Shown here one piece after another: positions 4,127 to 33,797 of a DNA stretch of 55,695 bases. The translations under genes were made by a program, and so were the position numbers. Positions within the stretch are counted from its first letter, which is position 1; every line of letters begins with the position of its first letter. Below the pieces are notes generated by a model. It ran no database searches and was not told where the DNA came from. It was given only the letters and a program-made list of their open reading frames with translations. Source of the DNA: an uncultured Desulfobacterales bacterium (lineage in GTDB: Bacteria > Desulfobacterota > Desulfobacteria > Desulfobacterales > ETH-SRB1); NCBI GenBank assembly GCA_965195235.1, contig CBDAFK010000159.1, forward strand, positions 1 through 55,695. The letters run 5' to 3'.

Positions 4127-5638
4127 ATGAAGGAAAAAACAATGGAAAGTAAAAGTAAAAAAACAAGGAATATAATAGGCATAGTCTTAGGCATTCTGAT
4201 AGTATTGGTTGTCTGGTCTATGGTAAGCGCAATGGGTAGCAGAGAAAAACCGGACGACGATAAACATCTCGGCATTGCGGAATATGAAAAGGGGAATTAC
4301 CAGGAGGCCATCAAATATTATAATAAGGGATTAGAAGCCAAGCCCGGTGATTCATGTTTGTTCAATAACCGTGGCCTGGCCTGTTATGAACTCAGAAACT
4401 ATGATGAGGCGCTTTCTGATTTTAGCAAGGCAATAGAACTAAAACCTGGCTTTACAGATGCCTATTTTAACCGAGGAAAAGCATACTGGAGAAAAGGAGA
4501 ACATAAAGATAAAGAGTCGCTGAAGAAAGCAATTTCTGATTTCAGTAAAGTCATAAAATTAAACCCTGATGATATGGAGGCTTATTACAACAGGGGGCTT
4601 GCTTACAGTAGTTTTGTCCATCACTGGAATAAAAAGGTCGATGATAGTTCTAAGCTTTCCGGATTTTCCCCTGATGAAACATATAATTTTGTTAAAGCCC
4701 TTGTTGATTTCCAAAAAGTAATCGACTCAGATTCTTCTTATAGCGCTCTCGCTATAGCCGGAAGAGCCAATCTCTTTTACAGGCACGCTAATTGGAAAGT
4801 GGCGATAATGGAATACAAGAAGGCGATAGAACGTAAGGAAGAAATTATAAAGGTCGTGGGCAAGGAAGGATATGGTGGGATGTTCGCACCTATGGGAAGA
4901 ACGTATCTATCGTTGGGAGAAATTGAGAACTCATATTCGAGTTATAAGAAATTCATGGATCTGGTTCCTGATCCTATGGCAACCTTCCATGAACAAGGGC
5001 CAACCTTTGGAATGGGCTATGCACTACATGTTGCTCAAAGTTTGAAGAAATACGAAAAAGCAATTGAATGGTATGACAGGAGAATTGCTATAAGTGAGAA
5101 GCCAAAAACGAGTGATTATTCGGGTAAAGGATTCTGCTATTACAAACTAAAGGAATATGACAAAGCAATCACGAATTACAATAAATGCCTGGATTTATAT
5201 GCTACCACAGAAACCCCTCAACATGAATATGGTTCTTCTGAAGGAGATGCCTGGAGATATCTGGGCATGATATACAAGGAAAAAGGAGACATTGGAAGAG
5301 CCGAAAAAGAATTTCGTAATGCTATACGAGTCTATAGTAAAAAGAAGAAAGGAGGAGGAAGGGTTAGATATGAAGGAAGAGGTCTGTGTTATCTTGAACT
5401 TGGGGAATATGATAAAGCAATTTCTGATTTTGAAAAAATAAAAGAATCAAAAATATATCCTCAAAAATATATAACCGCCCAAAAGAATATTGGTGTCACC
5501 TATCTAAAAATAGGGGATAAGGGAAAAGCAGAAGAATATTTTGAGAAAACAATAGAAATGGCCAAAGGGTATGAAAAAAAGAAGGATGAATATAAGGACA
5601 TAATCGAAGAAACAGAGAAGTTATTAAATGAAATATAA
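4127..5638 (+). CDS. Membrane-anchored TPR-repeat protein
   Basis: One N-terminal TM helix (IIGIVLGILIVLVVWSMV) followed by multiple TPR-like units (..YNxGxAyxxLxxYdEAixdFxKAIeLxP..). Start 4127 or 4142; the ORF-track start 4040 lacks an SD. Confidence 0.75.
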   Translation: MKEKTMESKSKKTRNIIGIVLGILIVLVVWSMVSAMGSREKPDDDKHLGIAEYEKGNYQEAIKYYNKGLEAKPGDSCLFNNRGLACYELRNYDEALSDFSKAIELKPGFTDAYFNRGKAYWRKGEHKDKESLKKAISDFSKVIKLNPDDMEAYYNRGLAYSSFVHHWNKKVDDSSKLSGFSPDETYNFVKALVDFQKVIDSDSSYSALAIAGRANLFYRHANWKVAIMEYKKAIERKEEIIKVVGKEGYGGMFAPMGRTYLSLGEIENSYSSYKKFMDLVPDPMATFHEQGPTFGMGYALHVAQSLKKYEKAIEWYDRRIAISEKPKTSDYSGKGFCYYKLKEYDKAITNYNKCLDLYATTETPQHEYGSSEGDAWRYLGMIYKEKGDIGRAEKEFRNAIRVYSKKKKGGGRVRYEGRGLCYLELGEYDKAISDFEKIKESKIYPQKYITAQKNIGVTYLKIGDKGKAEEYFEKTIEMAKGYEKKKDEYKDIIEETEKLLNEI

Positions 5639-22740: not shown

Positions 22741-22835
22741 AAGGGATGTCTTACGAGCTCGGACCTTTAGAAAGGTGTGCCGGGAAAGTGAAGGCGTAAC
22801 ATGGGTTGTAGTACAAAGCCAGGTTGCGCCTTTTT
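22741..22835 (+). promoter_or_regulatory. Conserved leader RNA copy A with intrinsic terminator (riboswitch/attenuator candidate, class unknown)
   Basis: Blocks aagggatgtcttacg and cgggaaagtgaaggcgtaac.tgg.ttgt are shared with copy B. Terminator stem ggcgtaac/gttgcgcc (22793-22830) followed by ttttt. Confidence 0.5.
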
Positions 22836-22971
22836 GTTTAGGAGATGTAGACAGTGAAGACCAGTATACGAAAAAATCACAACTTCCAGAGATCGCCCGA
22901 ATTTATTGAGAAGTGCAGGATAGATGTTAAACAATTGATGTTAACGGATAAATTTGAAAGGAGGCTACCGG

Positions 22972-23511
22972 ATGAAAACTATAATTGTGTGTGCGAGCCG
23001 TTATGGTTCGACCCTTGAGATTGGCCGCTGGATGGCAGATCGCCTGCCTTGGGAGAATGTGGACGTTTATCCGGTAGAGAAGGCACCCGAGCCGGAAGGT
23101 TATGAACTGGTCTTTTTAGGTGGTGGTGTTTACACTGAAGAGGTGAGCAAGGAGATAGTGGAATATGCCAGGAAGCACCTGACTTTTATGAAAGATCAAA
23201 AAGTGATCCTCTTTGCTGTCTGCCTTGATACCAAAGGGGTCTATATGCGGGGAAAGATACATGGAGGCTGGAACTACCTAAAGCCGCTTCTTCATCTCTT
23301 TAAAGATCAACCTCCTGTTCACGCCGGGGTCCTATCCGGGGAGATCAACCCGAAAAAGCTTACCGAAAAGGACTATAATCTTCTTATGATCCTTTATAAT
23401 AAAATTCTTAAACGCAATCTAACAGAGGTTCCTTACCGAACCCTGATGAATAAGCTGGAGGTCTGGGAGTTTGTCGAAAAAGCCTTATCCCGACTGGAGG
23501 GAAGATTTTAA
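22972..23511 (+). CDS. Flavodoxin-like protein (Flavodoxin_5/HemG-like)
   Basis: MKTIIVCASRYGSTLEIGRWMA N-terminus. SD aaaggagg 7 nt upstream of ATG 22972. Confidence 0.7.
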   Translation: MKTIIVCASRYGSTLEIGRWMADRLPWENVDVYPVEKAPEPEGYELVFLGGGVYTEEVSKEIVEYARKHLTFMKDQKVILFAVCLDTKGVYMRGKIHGGWNYLKPLLHLFKDQPPVHAGVLSGEINPKKLTEKDYNLLMILYNKILKRNLTEVPYRTLMNKLEVWEFVEKALSRLEGRF

Positions 23512-23534
23512 TGTAAATCTCAGGAGAAGCGCTG

Positions 23535-24968
23535 ATGGAAGATAAAACAAAACATAAAATGAACGTCGGGACGCTTAACCGTCATACCTCTGAAATAACC
23601 CCACAGGATCAGCGAAGGTTTTTTGCCAATGAAAATGGCGATCCCTTGCACTCGGCTTTTGATAAAAAGAGCGCAGTGCATCCAGGGGCCAGGGGTCGGC
23701 CTCTGGACCCTGAAAGCGCCGGCGAGGTGTGGAGCCGGATTATGGCCAGGGAGGGGGGAAAAGAGAAAAGAGCCGCATATTTCCATATACCATTTTGTGA
23801 GACACACTGTCTTTATTGCGGCTTTTATTTAAACCCGTTCAAGGCTGGCGAAGAAGAGAATCGTTATGTCGATTATGTTATCCGGGAACTGGAGATGGTG
23901 GCGAAGACTCCCTTTATCAAATCCCATCCTTTTCATGCCATCTATCTTGGAGGAGGAACCCCGAGTGCACTGAGGCATGAAAACCTTTTCAGGCTCCTGA
24001 AAGTAATCCCGAAATATCTGCCTCTGGCCAATGATTGCGAGATTACACTTGAAGGGAGAGTTTATCATTTTTCAGATGATAAGATCTTTGCGTGTATAGA
24101 GGGAGGGGTTAATCGTTTTTCTATAGGAGTTCAGAGTTTTGATACCCAGGTGCGCAGGAAGATGGGGCGCATCGAGACAGGAGAAAAGGTTGCAGAGAGA
24201 CTAAAATATATAGCTGGCCTTGACCAGACCGCTATGGTAATTGATTTGATTTATGGTCTTCCTTACCAGACCATGGAGATATGGGAAAAGGATGTAACAA
24301 AGTATATTGAATTGAAACTGGATGGCGTGGATCTATACCAGTTGAATATCTTTAAGAGGGGGAGGCTTGAAGAGGCTGTCCGGAAAAAAACGATAGCGCC
24401 GCCTGCTGATATCAGGATGCAGGCCGACATGTTTGCAAGAGGGGTAGAGATCATGAAGCATGCAAGATACAGGCGGCTTTCCATAAGCCACTGGGGGAGG
24501 ACCACACGGGAGAGAAATATCTATAATGCCCTGGCCCTGTCCGGCAAGGTTTGTGTTCCCTTTGGTTCCGGCGCAGGGGGATGGCTGGATGGATACTTCT
24601 TCTTCCAGGACAATAGACTGGATGGTTATTATCGAAGAATTGACGAGGGTAATAAACCGATTGCCATGTCCATGAAACAGCCTGAGAATAACGACCTGTT
24701 TAAGGAGCTTGCAGGGCAGATGGAATTAGGGCGCTGCCATTTAAAAGAGCTTGGAGAACATTACGGTTTTGAGCTTGAAGAAATCTTCTTTCCTCTCCTT
24801 GATCAGTGGGAAAAGGTTGGTCTGATTAAAATGAACGACGGCTGGACAGAGCTGACCCTGGCAGGTGAGTTCTGGCAGGTAAACCTTTGCCAGGCATTGA
24901 TCGATCATTTTGCTGCGGTGATTGGAAAGCGACCGGCCAGTCCCGGCATGATGGATCTTGGAGACTGA
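23535..24968 (+). CDS. hutW: HemN-family radical SAM enzyme, probably HutW/ChuW-like (anaerobic heme degradation methyltransferase)
   Basis: CETHCLYCGF (CxxxCxxC) after a roughly 85-aa N-terminal extension, then YLGGGTPSAL. 477 aa. The flavodoxin partner gene lies directly upstream. Family assignment is firm; the HutW subtype is tentative. Confidence 0.6.
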   Translation: MEDKTKHKMNVGTLNRHTSEITPQDQRRFFANENGDPLHSAFDKKSAVHPGARGRPLDPESAGEVWSRIMAREGGKEKRAAYFHIPFCETHCLYCGFYLNPFKAGEEENRYVDYVIRELEMVAKTPFIKSHPFHAIYLGGGTPSALRHENLFRLLKVIPKYLPLANDCEITLEGRVYHFSDDKIFACIEGGVNRFSIGVQSFDTQVRRKMGRIETGEKVAERLKYIAGLDQTAMVIDLIYGLPYQTMEIWEKDVTKYIELKLDGVDLYQLNIFKRGRLEEAVRKKTIAPPADIRMQADMFARGVEIMKHARYRRLSISHWGRTTRERNIYNALALSGKVCVPFGSGAGGWLDGYFFFQDNRLDGYYRRIDEGNKPIAMSMKQPENNDLFKELAGQMELGRCHLKELGEHYGFELEEIFFPLLDQWEKVGLIKMNDGWTELTLAGEFWQVNLCQALIDHFAAVIGKRPASPGMMDLGD

Positions 24969-24970
24969 TT

Positions 24971-25390
24971 TTGAAAAACGCAATCATTTCAGATGTGATC
25001 ACGCACAGGAATCGCGCAATTAGAATATGCCTGATAATTACAGGGTCATTCTTTGTAGGTCTTGGAACGCTCGGGATAGTTTTGCCTCTTTTGCCTACAA
25101 CCCCGTTTCTCGTGCTTGCCGCTATGTGTTTTTCCCGAAGTTCAGAAAGATTTCACAACTGGCTCCTTAACAACAAATGGTTTGGAGCCTACATTAAGAA
25201 TTACCGGGAGGGTAAGGGGATTTCGTTAAGGCAAAAGGTTGTAGTTCTGTCCCTCCTGATATTAACAATCGGATATTCATGCATTTTCCTGCTTGATCAT
25301 ATTGCCGTCAGGATTATTTTAGTTTTGATAGCTGTTGGCATAAGTAGCCACATTCTCAGAATTCCAACCTTGCGCAGCCCTAAACAATGA
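24971..25390 (+). CDS. ybaN: DUF454 (YbaN-family) inner-membrane protein
   Basis: LGIVLPLLPTTPFLVLAAMCFSRSSERFHNWLLNNKWFG is the family signature. Probable TTG start 24971, just after the upstream TGA. Confidence 0.75.
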   Translation: MKNAIISDVITHRNRAIRICLIITGSFFVGLGTLGIVLPLLPTTPFLVLAAMCFSRSSERFHNWLLNNKWFGAYIKNYREGKGISLRQKVVVLSLLILTIGYSCIFLLDHIAVRIILVLIAVGISSHILRIPTLRSPKQ

Positions 25391-25410
25391 TCAATGTAAC
25401 TGCTCAGTTA

Positions 25411-25454
25411 GATAGGCTGAAGGCTGTTAGATCACTTCAGCCTTCAGGCTAAAC
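25411..25454. repeat. Palindromic aggctgaagg-type repeat hairpin
   Basis: gataggctgaaggctgttagatcacttcagccttcaggctaaac. Same unit family as the arrays at 45593, 46024 and 51874. Confidence 0.7.
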
Positions 25455-25586
25455 AAATAGTAGATAGCCACGAATGACATGAATGGGGCACGAATGAACC
25501 GTGAGCCTGAGTAGTTACAAAAAATCTTGACAGTAAATTTTTCTTTTGTTAGGGATGCCTAAATTGCTTAGTTATATAAAACTCTG

Positions 25587-25677
25587 AAGGGATGTTTTAC
25601 GGTTTCCTGGCCTGATATTGCGGGAAAAAGTGAGGGCGTAACTTGGATTGTGAAAGCAGTCGGGTTGCGCTTTTTTT
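25587..25677 (+). promoter_or_regulatory. Conserved leader RNA copy B with intrinsic terminator
   Basis: aagggatgttttacg ... cgggaaaaagtgagggcgtaacttggattgt ... gttgcgc followed by ttttttt. Lies 34 nt upstream of ATG 25711. Confidence 0.5.
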
Positions 25678-25710: not shown

Positions 25711-27720
25711 ATGGCTACCAGGGAAGAATTAGAAGAAAAAGCAGGAGATTGCCAAACCACTGAAGATTATGTCGATGTGGCAAAAGAAATAGTTAACGCG
25801 TTGTCAGATAAGGAATGGGCCACAAGCCTCATTGAAGAAGGCGCGGAATGGGCGCAAACCGCTGATGAATGTATAGCCCTCGCAAAGAGTTCATCAGAGG
25901 TATTGGAAAACAAAGAGAAATCAAACGAATATCTGGTGCGTGCCAAGGATTATTGCATGAACGCCCAGGATTTCGTAAACCTTGGCAAAGCAGCATCAGA
26001 CATGGGCGAGGCCGAAGCCGCCAAAGAAATATTTGTCGCCGCTCAGGGCAAATGCGTCAAGATCAAAGATTTTCTGGATCTCAGCAAAACCATCAATGAG
26101 CTACTTTCAGACGCGGAGTTAGCCAGGGAAACCGCTAACAAGGCATTGGGCAAATGCAGCAGCGCCGCGGACTATAATGAATATGCCAAAAGTGTACTTG
26201 ATATATTTGACGATAAGGACTGGACAAAGGAAGTTTACGACAAGGCTGTTGAAACATGCAAAACCGGAGAAAATTTCGGGGTGCTCGCGAAAGGTGTTCT
26301 GGATAATCTTTCCGATAAAAATCTGGCCAAGTCAATTTATGAGAAGGCGGAGAGTTCCCTTGATTCAGGAATTGATCTGATAAAATTGGCCGAGTCAGCC
26401 ATAACTGATTTAGAAGATGAAGAATATGCCAAAGCAATTTATACAAATGCCGAGGGCAAGCTCGAAAGCGGCGATGATTTGATGCAACTCGCGGAATCAT
26501 TGATGGGTAAACTTAATGATAAGGACATGGCGTTGACAGTTTATAAAACAGCGGAAACTAAATACAGCGATTATGCAAATTATGTCAAACTGGCCAAAGC
26601 TGTCTTCAAGGATACGGGTGATGCTGCTTTTGCCGGTAGTGTTTACAAAAAGGCGGCTGACACAACCCAGGATTCCAATCAACTGGTAGCGGTTGCAATT
26701 GCCCTGGCTGACGAAATTAATGATAAAAAAGGCGCCTTTGACGAGCTAAAACGAGCAGAGCTATCCGTTAAGACCGTGGATGAATTTAAAAAGACTGCCG
26801 ATGCCATCATCAAGTACGCTGACGATCAACAGTGGATTGATGTTATTAATGACCAACTCGAAAAGCGAGAGACTCACAAAGACCTTTATAAAGAATTTGT
26901 TGACCGGGAACAAGAATGCAAAACAAGCAAATCAATGTCTAACCTGGCCCATGAAGTGATTGAGAAAACGGCTGATTCTCATTATGCCAGAAAGCTTTAC
27001 CAAACGGCTGAAGGATTATGCACGTATTTTCCTGAATATCTCCATGTTGCCGGGGCCATTTATTCTGATCTTAACGACGCAGACTGGATACGAACAATTT
27101 ATGAAAAACTGCTCGAAGAGTGCGATGATACACACAAGTATAACGATTTGGTTGATGGAATAACAACCACCTTGAATGATAAAGAATGGGTTAAGAATAT
27201 CTATTCGAAATTGGAAGAACAATGCAACAAGGAGACAGATTTTATCAAACTGGCCCGTATTGTTCTGGCAAAATTGGGCGATCAAGATTTGGCCAAAAAA
27301 CTTCTCGGTAAGGCTGAGGAAAAAAGTCAGGATATATTCGGGTACACCACTGTAGCAATGGCTGTGCTCGACATTTTGGCTGATAAGGAGTGGGCAAAAT
27401 CTATCTACAATAAAGCTGAAGCGAATTGCAATAATCGGGATGATTACGAAAATCTAATTTCCGAGATCCAGAGGAAAACGCCTGACGATGACCTTCTCCG
27501 GCAGATACACAGCTCCGCTGAGAATAAGTTTAGAGAAACAAGAGATTTTATTTATTTGGCCGAAAGCATTGTAAGGTGTTTTTCGGATAATTCATGGGCC
27601 AGGAATGTCTATGCAAAAGCTAAGCAAGCGTCAGATGCCAATACCTGCAAATTTGAGCTGGCTGCCAGCGTTGCCAGGAAGCTAAATGACACAAAATGGG
27701 CATCTCGGTTGCGAAGATAA
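25711..27720 (+). CDS. Cytoplasmic all-helical protein built of about 19 tandem 34-residue repeats (TPR-length, non-canonical)
   Basis: Manual parsing gives 34-aa units of pattern xKAExxCxxxxDFxxLAxxVxxxLxDKxWAKxIY. SD aaggaggg. No signal peptide. Confidence 0.8.
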   Translation: MATREELEEKAGDCQTTEDYVDVAKEIVNALSDKEWATSLIEEGAEWAQTADECIALAKSSSEVLENKEKSNEYLVRAKDYCMNAQDFVNLGKAASDMGEAEAAKEIFVAAQGKCVKIKDFLDLSKTINELLSDAELARETANKALGKCSSAADYNEYAKSVLDIFDDKDWTKEVYDKAVETCKTGENFGVLAKGVLDNLSDKNLAKSIYEKAESSLDSGIDLIKLAESAITDLEDEEYAKAIYTNAEGKLESGDDLMQLAESLMGKLNDKDMALTVYKTAETKYSDYANYVKLAKAVFKDTGDAAFAGSVYKKAADTTQDSNQLVAVAIALADEINDKKGAFDELKRAELSVKTVDEFKKTADAIIKYADDQQWIDVINDQLEKRETHKDLYKEFVDREQECKTSKSMSNLAHEVIEKTADSHYARKLYQTAEGLCTYFPEYLHVAGAIYSDLNDADWIRTIYEKLLEECDDTHKYNDLVDGITTTLNDKEWVKNIYSKLEEQCNKETDFIKLARIVLAKLGDQDLAKKLLGKAEEKSQDIFGYTTVAMAVLDILADKEWAKSIYNKAEANCNNRDDYENLISEIQRKTPDDDLLRQIHSSAENKFRETRDFIYLAESIVRCFSDNSWARNVYAKAKQASDANTCKFELAASVARKLNDTKWASRLRR

Positions 27721-32202: not shown

Positions 32203-33123
32203 CTATGGTTCTACTATAACAACAAAATTAGAAGTGTAAGTAATATCGCATTCCCGATCATGCAATGTGATATAAACTGACGTCGGAGGTGGCGTACCTT
32301 TTAGTTCAGCAAACCAAATTAAATTTAAATCATCTGAGCAAGAAAGAGCACAAAACCCGTAAAGATAGTTATCATTATTATCATAGATCTTAACCCAAGT
32401 CCGCGAAGCATTGGTGTTCAAACCGCATGGTGGTAAATGAGGTGAAGGTACAAACAGTTCGTCAGGAAAATCTCCAGAGTTAGTTACTGCCAGTTTATAA
32501 CGAGTATACTCTGTTGAACCGATCCAATAATACTCCGATCCAGTGTAACTGAGATCTGGGCTTGGCAAATCGGGATAACATTGAACAACCCGTACCGTGA
32601 TGGGATCAGAGGTAGCGCTTACCTGCGAGTCAAGGAAGATGCCCTTGGCGTTAGCGCCTGAGTTCAGGTAGTGTATGCCAGCCTCGGTATACTCCTGCTG
32701 ACCACCCGGATTGACGTCTGTTGACACCCAGAAAACCAGGGTTTCTGATGCCCCTGGCGCCAAGTCTTCCACTTCCCAGGTCAGGAACACCTTCTCGGTC
32801 TTGCCTTTGATGGAGGTGTCCACCGAACCTATAGAAGCTTCATAATCACTCAACTCAAGGTCACCGCCGAGGCGGTCCTTGACCACGACGCCGGTAATCG
32901 AGTTGACGGCATCGTTGTTGGTAACCGTGATCTTCAACTGAAAGTCTGTCTCTTCCCCGACCTCAATTAGGCCATCTGCATCCTCATCCCAGTACTCAAC
33001 AAGCTCCTTGGTCACTGAAATCGGCCAATCTTCCGCGTCAGCACTGGCTATTCCCATCCCCATAACCATTGATATTGATAGGGTCAGAACCAGTGCCAAT
33101 ATTGGAAATAATACTTTTTTCAT
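32203..33123 (-). CDS. Secreted protein with DUF11-like beta-sandwich domain and Cys-containing C-terminal domain
   Basis: Signal peptide. ..LKITVTNNDAVNSITGVVVKDRLGGDLEL.. resembles the DUF11/Cna-B-type repeat. Confidence 0.55.
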   Translation of the reverse strand: MKKVLFPILALVLTLSISMVMGMGIASADAEDWPISVTKELVEYWDEDADGLIEVGEETDFQLKITVTNNDAVNSITGVVVKDRLGGDLELSDYEASIGSVDTSIKGKTEKVFLTWEVEDLAPGASETLVFWVSTDVNPGGQQEYTEAGIHYLNSGANAKGIFLDSQVSATSDPITVRVVQCYPDLPSPDLSYTGSEYYWIGSTEYTRYKLAVTNSGDFPDELFVPSPHLPPCGLNTNASRTWVKIYDNNDNYLYGFCALSCSDDLNLIWFAELKGTPPPTSVYITLHDRECDITYTSNFVVIVEP

Positions 33124-33362: not shown

Positions 33363-33797
33363 AAAAAAGCCGGGCCACCTTTTCCCAGGCAACCCGGCTA
33401 TCTTTTCCCAGGCAACCCGGCTATCTTTTTTCAAGACCCGTGGCTTTCCGTCCCCTGATCACTCAGGGTTTGGCTTTGTCTGCAGGGCTAATGGGGATCA
33501 TACGTCCCCACTGCACTTACCCCAATATTTAATTTTTAAGATGTGACCCTAATTGCTCTCAAAATAAAAAAGCCGGGCCACCTTTTCCCAGGCAACCCGG
33601 CTATCTTTTCCCAGGCAACCCGGCTATCTTTTTTCAAGACCCGTGGCTTTCCGCCCCCTGATCACTCAGGGTTTGGCTTTGTCTGCAGGGCTAATGGGGA
33701 CGTCATAAATTTATAAATCAAAGATTCATTGAGAGCAAAAAGTTATATTTGCAGACGTCCCCACTGCGGTTACCCCAATGTTTAATTTTTAAGATGT
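33363..33797 (-). repeat. Tandem duplication of a roughly 190-bp unit; each copy ends (minus strand) in a strong intrinsic terminator. Candidate tandem sRNA genes or 3'UTR elements
   Basis: Unit 1 is 33363-33547 and unit 2 is 33568-33797, the latter with a roughly 50-bp insertion at 33705-33753. Terminators lie at 33362-33399 and 33565-33602. ccctga-GUGA-ucaggg hairpin. Confidence 0.8.

Follow-up and report, generated by a model that had tools for sequence, protein, structure and literature searches.

A putative iron-responsive attenuator leader upstream of iron-acquisition genes in Desulfobacterales and other anaerobes

In the textbook view, bacterial iron uptake is controlled at the protein level by Fur and DtxR, with help from trans-acting small RNAs (sRNAs). 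The metal-ion riboswitches M-box (Mg2+), yybP-ykoY (Mn2+) and czcD/NiCo are cis-acting 5′ leaders that carry an intrinsic terminator and stand before metal-homeostasis genes, and in a further group of very small riboswitches, those for HMP-PP (thiS), Li+ (nhaA-I), Na+ (DUF1646) and xanthine (NMT1), the aptamer is fused to or embedded in the intrinsic terminator. Only the czcD/NiCo RNA has so far been proposed as a sensor of Fe2+ (PMC9389577; PMC11672702), and it was the sole possible Fe2+ riboswitch, controlling efflux, that was named in two reviews (on riboswitch ligands and on metal sensing) and in the motif surveys consulted. Here we analyze a leader that occurs twice in a 55.7-kb stretch of DNA from an uncultured Desulfobacterales bacterium of the ETH-SRB1 lineage (contig CBDAFK010000159.1; the whole stretch is called the window, with coordinates on the + strand unless stated). 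An original prediction, made from the window sequence alone, had taken it for an unclassified cis-regulatory RNA that ties two transcription units to one signal, and this is supported by the lack of an Rfam match, by 133 homologues and by the coherent, co-oriented genes that follow them. The leader thus appears to be a real, widespread and apparently uncatalogued family of cis-regulatory RNA governing iron acquisition.

A check of the sequence placed the two look-alike leaders at the positions first proposed for them, with the following full extents.

22742..22839, + strand: copy A, entire element, starting at the conserved A-GG-R and ending with the U run (83.1 bits with covariance model R1; 61.7 bits with the aptamer-only model R2)
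25588..25677, + strand: copy B, whole element (74.7 bits with R1; 58.5 bits with R2)

Including flanks, copies A and B are 77% identical over 172 aligned columns, and the identity is concentrated, as had been noticed by eye, in a 5′ block, AAGGGATGTYTTACG, and a 3′ block, AAGTGARGGCGTAACWTGGRTTGT. Exact searches of the window matched each block twice, the 5′ block over 15 nt and the 3′ block over 24 nt, against 0.00 expected for the 3′ block from 100 dinucleotide shuffles; run over the whole window with filters off, the R1 and R2 models found copies A and B only. Copy A has a minimum free energy of −34.0 kcal/mol (z-score −2.98) and copy B one of −30.9 kcal/mol (z-score −3.41). Each copy folds into a hairpin, then a GGCGUAAC/GUUGCGC(C) stem, then a U run, which bears out the terminator that had been read from the sequence, and the central segment is, as described, unlike between the copies in sequence and length, yet paired in both.

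Homologues were sought with an exact-pattern scan (ATGTYTTACG-N15-45-AGTGARGGCGTAAC; one genome per species), which returned 115 distinct instances on 108 stretches from 88 assemblies, and the R1 model added about 20 further diverged copies in the same loci; that the element might have no further homologues, a possibility raised at the outset, is contradicted by the resulting 133 distinct copies. Most carriers are Desulfobacteraceae, Desulfosarcina, Desulfonema, Desulfatiglans and other Thermodesulfobacteriota. Further carriers are bins of Nitrospirota/Thermodesulfovibrionales and Acidobacteriota, on contigs of 28–75 kb, and a few short contigs with the leader were binned as WOR-3, Zixibacteria, Thermotogota, Anaerolineales and Altiarchaeota, assignments that should be treated with caution. 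Genomes have up to five or six copies, with at least five on one 66-kb scaffold of Eth-SRB2 and at least six in one Guaymas bin.

Among 110 homologues, conservation sets in abruptly at A(−4)-G-G-R and runs on into AUGUCUUACGG, while upstream there is just a weak −10-like A/T signal at −14 to −7; by this sequence pattern, the leader probably starts the transcript, at or next to A-GG-R-AUG. The structure was derived from anchored mutual information and alignment counts. Its first helix, P1, is 6 bp long and pairs U4C5U6U7A8C9 with G2′U3′G4′A5′(A6′ bulged)G7′G8′; a 2 × 2 GG/AA internal loop separates P1 from P2, which is variable in length and sequence and covaries strongly, all five basal pairs changing on both sides. 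The intrinsic terminator has an 8-bp GGCGUAAC/GUURCGCC stem, extended by P3 and followed by 5–8 U, and it is present in 114 of the 115 exact-pattern instances, the exception being cut by a contig end. These parts lie in the window as follows.

22742..22748, + strand: copy A, 5′ tail A-GG-G-AUG, nearly invariant, with which the element starts and probably also the transcript, conservation jumping at −4
22749..22754, + strand: copy A, 5′ strand of P1, UCUUAC, whose partner is 22788–22794
22758..22784, + strand: copy A, variable hairpin P2, from the fold, with 5/5 basal pairs changing on both sides across homologues
22788..22794, + strand: copy A, 3′ strand of P1, GUGA-(A)-GG, whose last two G's (22793–22794) double as the base of the terminator
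22793..22835, + strand: copy A, intrinsic terminator, with the 5′ arm GGCGUAAC at 22793–22800, the upper stem and loop at 22801–22822, the 3′ arm GUUGCGCC at 22823–22830 and the U run at 22831–22835
25595..25600, + strand: copy B, 5′ strand of P1, UUUUAC, in which C5 is replaced by U and pairing with G is retained
25603..25627, + strand: copy B, hairpin P2, UUUCCUG...CGGGAAA, from the fold, with covariation in homologues
25630..25636, + strand: copy B, 3′ strand of P1, GUGA-(G)-GG, from sequence and fold
25635..25677, + strand: copy B, intrinsic terminator, with the 5′ arm GGCGUAAC at 25635–25642, the upper hairpin at 25643–25663, the 3′ arm GUUGCGCU at 25664–25671 and the U run to 25677

When 106 full-length copies were aligned with MAFFT, pairing was seen in 93.1% of cells, compared with 87.5% in shuffles and 39–54% in controls with slid partners, and both-side changes number 179 cells compared with 41 in shuffles; none of 500 shuffles reached the observed values. 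Variation in the conserved blocks is confined to 23 copies, in which P1 pairing is retained in 11 of 14 variant cells, two of them double compensatory changes (C5-G7′ to U-A and A8-U3′ to G-C). A metagenome-wide scan for otherwise exact copies with a base other than U at U3′ of GUGA found only one chance match (L114), so U3′ is effectively invariant. A longer P1 of 9 bp that includes AUG/CGU was predicted by folding and is broken in the variants (5 of 22 cells paired), and the 6-bp P1 was retained. The AAC of the terminator 5′ arm is invariant although 23 of the 106 aligned terminators leave its middle A unpaired, and it is therefore conserved for more than helix formation. Two features generally expected of a riboswitch are present here, a covarying, structured element of the 5′ untranslated region and its consistent placement in cis before a coherent gene set; direct, protein-free binding of a small ligand that alters the fold would be the third. 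The leader is a strong candidate for a riboswitch-like switch.

Some readings involve no RNA switch and see in the leader a repeat or a mobile element, an operator in the DNA for a transcription factor, attenuation by a leader peptide, or a site for CsrA. They are largely refuted by these data, and we give them next to no chance. The conserved 5′ AUG could be the start of a leaderless peptide, but the conserved UAA falls in its frame in 42 copies and in the other two frames in 37 and 35, so that there is no conserved open reading frame (ORF). A dimeric DNA site or repeat was rejected because the spacing between the 5′ and 3′ blocks ranges from 18 to 41 nt while the pairing covaries, which fits an RNA. 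The CsrA consensus from SELEX is RUACARGGAUGU, whose 3′ part equals the A-R-G-G-A-U-G-U at the 5′ end of the leader (e.g., window 22742–22749), and far-sub-threshold matches to CsrC and RsmY go in the same direction. However, in scans at E ≤ 10, CsrC and RsmY reached 17.2 and 7.4 bits, where their gathering scores are 61 and 57. CsrA-binding RNAs of this kind have many GGA loops, the leader has one conserved GGA only, and CsrA would leave the other 25 invariant bases unexplained; the likeness is probably a coincidence. The CsrC match is that of one copy, at 5252–5350 on the − strand of locus L062.

Within 450 nt downstream of the leader, 108 of 114 instances have a co-oriented ORF, and the other six run off short contigs. 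Together with the coherence of the gene set, this is the opposite of a random placement with respect to genes, which had been considered as another way in which the original prediction could fail. From the terminator tail to the called start codon the median distance is 57 nt, and a ribosome-binding site often follows directly after the U run. These figures bear on whether the leader could instead be a multi-copy family of trans-acting sRNAs, similar to the iron sRNAs RyhB and PrrF, in which the single-stranded blocks would be seeds and the adjacency to genes incidental. Such an sRNA would be in keeping with a self-terminating unit of about 95 nt, with the presence of several copies in one genome, and with conserved unpaired blocks next to variable stems. 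However, free-standing sRNA genes should be co-oriented with the next gene in only about 50% of cases, and the conserved blocks pair with each other as P1, and we therefore consider this explanation very improbable, though the terminated leader could have an additional, secondary role in trans.

The downstream proteins were clustered, and representatives of the 32 clusters with at least two members were scanned, with 62 unclustered ORFs left out. Counted as transcription units, the gene families include the following.

FeoB: 25 units
FeoA: 17 units
FeoC: 2 units
DUF2325 protein of about 420 amino acids: 25 units
Cys-tailed partner of the DUF2325 protein, 130 amino acids: 23 units
Short DUF2325 protein: 3 units

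Other recurring families are DUF3450-ExbB-ExbD, TonB-dependent receptors, DUF4198 and a NikL-like protein; OprB-like and other porins, NifX-like plus triple-FeoA genes, and flavodoxin-HutW; and ECF sigma factors, AraC regulators, an HU paralogue, a P-type ATPase, AAA+VWA proteins and an ABC exporter. In Desulfovibrio and Geobacter, the Fur regulon has been reconstructed as containing feoAB, fld, the AraC-type gene foxR, porins, a P-type ATPase and MoxR/CoxE-like VWA proteins (Rodionov et al., 2004; PMC545781), and the gene set of the leader is nearly the same, and is therefore an iron-limitation regulon. In these two genera, control is through a 17-bp DNA Fur box, an TTGAAAATCATTTTCAA-like palindrome, whereas the element shared by the genes studied here is an RNA leader. 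Upstream of the leaders, the best matches to the Fur box, for which only the published delta-proteobacterial consensus was tried, have at least four mismatches and are distributed as in control DNA, and no conserved upstream element at a fixed position was found across the aligned homologues; thus, the leader is the one element that these genes appear to share. As to whether homologues always precede heme or flavodoxin genes, as the original prediction had asked, the downstream set is indeed coherent, but its theme is broader, namely iron acquisition in general (Feo, TonB, flavodoxin and heme breakdown). The signal is very likely to be iron status.

In the Eth-SRB2 locus, for example, the leader directly precedes feoA-feoB and also a small HU-like gene. 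The Eth-SRB2 scaffold RPGQ01000052.1 (loci L082, L031/L001 and L036) looks like an ‘iron island’, with at least five leaders before feoAB, HU-like, NifX-like/FeoAx3/DUF2325 and FeoA genes. At another locus (L106, 3051–3250, − strand), two leaders, both complete with a terminator, stand in tandem before a HutW-like radical SAM gene, which is followed by a gene for a DtxR-family regulator. In Desulfosarcina-like genomes, a gene for an iron-dependent repressor of the DtxR/IdeR family stands just upstream of a cluster of a 97-aa gene, the long DUF2325 gene and the Cys-tail gene (L120, 1515–2066; L121, 1393–1968; L122, 1522–2073), which hints at protein-level iron control alongside the RNA leader.

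At either copy, no family of Rfam 15 reached its gathering score, in agreement with the original statement that, by eye, the leader matches the conserved core of none of the riboswitch classes considered. The gathering scan of the whole window had two c-di-GMP-I-GGC aptamers at 33.4–33.7 kb as its sole matches, and scans at E ≤ 10 of both window copies and two distant homologues gave noise only (best 21.6 bits against 49). We found no description of a leader motif of feoAB or of iron uptake in Rfam 15 or in the literature searched, which was accessible in part and included the Breaker-lab 224-motif, 26-genome and 50-genome surveys. The leader is a device of a known kind, a terminator-based leader switch, and its sequence and regulon are new.

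Compared with the metal-ion riboswitches, the leader has no match in sequence or structure; it is a single rod-like hairpin and not a multi-helix junction. The czcD/NiCo RNA, for example, is a four-way junction, whereas the leader consensus is one continuous hairpin (P1-loop-P2) plus terminator, and czcD precedes genes for metal efflux, whereas the leader precedes genes for uptake and iron sparing (Feo, TonB system, flavodoxin and HutW). With the thiS, nhaA-I, DUF1646 and NMT1 classes, the leader has in common a very small hairpin that overlaps a terminator and has conserved bases in internal loops; however, there is no Rfam match to them, the conserved sequences and regulated genes differ, and ligand binding by the leader is putative. 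ANTAR target RNAs consist of two tandem short hairpins with hexaloops, whereas the leader has one hairpin, with a loop of about 3 to more than 12 nt. Iron-responsive elements (IREs) are hairpins that carry the loop CAGUGN and affect translation or stability. The IRE system with its iron regulatory protein (aconitase) resembles the role proposed for the leader, RNA-level control of iron genes under iron shortage, but the AGUGA of the leader is inside a helix and the output is transcription termination.

The RAT elements of BglG, LicT and SacY offer a further parallel, in that the 3′ part of a conserved hairpin is shared with the 5′ arm of a strong terminator, which stops transcription by default, and binding gives read-through. 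P1 shares G7′G8′ with the terminator in a RAT-like overlap, though the resemblance is one of architecture only, the sequences being unrelated and the regulon being one of iron acquisition, with no CAT/PRD protein or phosphotransferase system genes in the cluster representatives scanned. It is nevertheless conceivable that the leader works by protein-dependent antitermination, as do the sites of LicT-BglG, PyrR and HutP, with an iron-status-dependent RNA-binding protein, e.g., an apo form of an iron or iron–sulfur (Fe-S) protein, binding the rod while the RNA itself senses nothing. The RAT-type architecture, in which a conserved hairpin overlaps the 5′ arm of a strong terminator and termination is the default, and a single uniform expression platform in all 133 copies are what such a mechanism would predict. 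The commonest first gene after the leader, that of a Cys-rich DUF2325 protein (long or short; 26 units), also resembles autoregulated antiterminator genes, and a DUF2325 protein of Campylobacter is PerR-regulated and a suspected metal binder (PMC9426514). Against this, no CAT/PRD, ANTAR, PyrR-like or other known RNA-binding domain was found in the 32 cluster representatives scanned, and a stretch of about 30 nt that is near-invariant over several phyla is commoner for ligand pockets than for protein sites, which is a weak argument. The long DUF2325 gene is also loosely coupled to the leader: in five fresh loci, it was directly downstream of a leader in one, the leader was nearby, at another gene, in two, and it was absent in two. 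DUF2325 was therefore rejected as an obligatory partner and looks like a member of the regulon; searches of PDB and NCBIfam gave no clue to its function. Overall, we judge protein-dependent antitermination unlikely, if still worth reckoning with. Upstream of one long DUF2325 gene (L123, 2353–2501), GGGACUGCCUUGCGG...ACGCAAC, together with a hairpin, looks like the remnant of a leader and was missed by both covariance models.

Folding indicates how the switch is poised. In 113 of 114 copies, the minimum-energy structure contains the terminator, usually beside the four inner pairs of P1, and the short P1 coexists with the terminator in 88 of these 114 folds; when the 3′ arm is made unavailable, as it is during transcription, GGCGU becomes the partner of the 5′ strand in 111 of 114. 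Across the 114 homologues, the terminator state is favored by a mean of 10.3 kcal/mol, and explicit anti-terminated models cost +7.8 kcal/mol (extended rod) and +9.4 kcal/mol (three-way junction). With the terminator form ahead by about 10 kcal/mol, termination should be the default outcome. No separate stable anti-terminator helix was found by folding, and the UUACG/CGUAA anti-terminator that had been suggested does not survive, as it occurs in 0 of 114 folds and its pairing is kept in only 7 of 16 variant cells. The underlying idea of a competition between the 5′ strand and the terminator holds in another form, with UCUUAC/GUGA(A)GG as the competing helix that shares two G's with the terminator base. 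The three-way junction, in which the 5′ AGG would swap with the shared GG for the CC of the terminator, is possible and was set aside for its cost of +9.4 kcal/mol.

Taken together, we hypothesize that each copy is an mRNA 5′ leader that would act in cis as a transcription attenuator. The RNA would form a rod of P1, the GG/AA loop and P2, with the strong terminator directly next to it and sharing the two G's of P1. An effector that reports iron limitation would bind the invariant core (5′ tail, P1, loop and CGUAAC) and keep the two G's, and perhaps CGU, from the 3′ arm of the terminator, whereupon RNA polymerase would read through into the iron-acquisition genes, which in the window are flavodoxin-HutW-DUF454 and the repeat protein gene. 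Since it is iron shortage that induces the regulon, iron limitation is what the effector would be expected to report. That the leader is a cis-regulatory attenuator RNA is highly probable, whereas the full proposal, of a new cis-acting attenuator whose terminator is blocked by an effector reporting iron limitation, is our best explanation and, judged from sequence, a reasonably probable one. Much the same degree of confidence applies to the bound form being the read-through form, as the folding models suggest. We infer a small ligand or an ion, and not a protein, as the effector, and consider the chances about even that the putative sensing is done by the RNA alone. Tentatively, the leader may represent a new riboswitch class that senses iron status directly, through Fe2+ or a small molecule accumulating in shortage, and that controls a whole iron regulon at the level of termination, in the role of the Fur box.

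Several observations weigh against this proposal. The one uniform terminator platform in all copies is as typical of protein-bound antiterminator sites as of riboswitches, and we know of no precedent for a small-molecule effector that signals iron shortage. The outer AUG/CGU pairs that folding predicts for the anti-terminator are kept in only 5 of 22 variant cells, and the exact competing structure given above is therefore provisional; the Fur-box comparison used a single published consensus; and the short-contig bins outside Desulfobacterota (Altiarchaeota, WOR-3 and Thermotogota) may be mis-binned. The familiar logic, in which Fe2+ switches uptake off, would in addition need a bound form that favors the terminator.

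To our knowledge, the metal riboswitches known to control uptake genes, such as the M-box, are without exception OFF switches. A leader of this type could be an OFF riboswitch for Fe2+ (or heme or Fe-S), with a ligand pocket that includes the terminator helix, as in HMP-PP thiS, or that frees GGCGUAAC, while the unliganded RNA would be read through. The regulon is the classic iron-repressed set, and the invariant 5′ arm of the terminator, together with its coexistence with P1 in 88 of 114 folds, makes a pocket of P1, terminator and 5′ tail possible. However, even without ligand, the terminator is already about 8–10 kcal/mol ahead of any anti-terminator built, and read-through of the apo form is hard to explain without a separate stable anti-terminator helix. 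The design in which Fe2+ promotes termination fits regulatory precedent better and the energetics worse than the blocked-terminator attenuator, and we regard it as quite unlikely.

If the attenuator proposal is true, a widespread cis-acting RNA over feoAB, TonB systems, heme degradation and flavodoxin would bring in a class of metal control that had been missing, that of uptake, would give a compact candidate sensor part of about 60 nt, and would explain how iron acquisition is tuned in major marine sulfate reducers, including the syntrophic partners of alkane-oxidizing archaea (Eth-SRB1 and Eth-SRB2). Were the reading as a directly sensing riboswitch also true, it would have taken over the role of the Fur box in many Desulfobacterales, Nitrospirota and other anaerobes. 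The analysis also flags DUF2325, its Cys-rich partner and the 669-aa repeat protein as members of an iron regulon. The leader is also carried by two cultured bacteria, Desulfosarcina widdelii PP31 and D. cetonica JCM 12296, which makes a direct test of the idea possible.

The genes behind the two copies in the window are as follows.

22972..23511, + strand: flavodoxin-like gene (Flavodoxin_5; Pfam E = 1e-14), first after copy A
23535..24968, + strand: ChuW/HutW anaerobic heme-degrading radical SAM methyltransferase, or anaerobilin synthase (TIGR04107, 514.6 bits; cut-off 400)
24971..25390, + strand: DUF454 (YbaN-like) membrane protein (Pfam E = 7e-41; start codon approximate), last gene of the copy A unit
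25711..27720, + strand: 669-aa TPR-like repeat protein, with no significant family match, the gene after copy B

A protein of Desulfobacteraceae bacterium Eth-SRB2, named anaerobilin synthase, shares 90% identity with HutW, and the window is therefore from a sulfate reducer related to Eth-SRB2. The more distant HutW loci examined are without the leader upstream. Homologues of the 669-aa repeat protein in Desulfobacter (about 40% identity; L115, 1–4926, and L116, 1–4914) divergently adjoin feoA-feoB, and L116 also has a NicO gene; an iron link of the repeat protein is supported because these homologues are divergent to feoAB, and the leader motif is absent from both Desulfobacter loci.

Three further elements were noted in the window. 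The 133-nt spacer between the terminator of copy A and the flavodoxin start contains an imperfect palindrome, GTTAAACAATTGATGTTAAC (22932–22951), which could be a second control site at the DNA level. A hairpin, GGCTGAAG...CTTCAGCC (25419–25446), lies 3′ of the DUF454 gene, without a T run and with a weak, sub-threshold match to P26. Lastly, the two c-di-GMP-I-GGC aptamers (RF03167; 69.6 and 68.4 bits) are arranged in tandem on the − strand, at 33407–33483 and 33610–33686, upstream of a 306-aa ORF (32203–33123, − strand).

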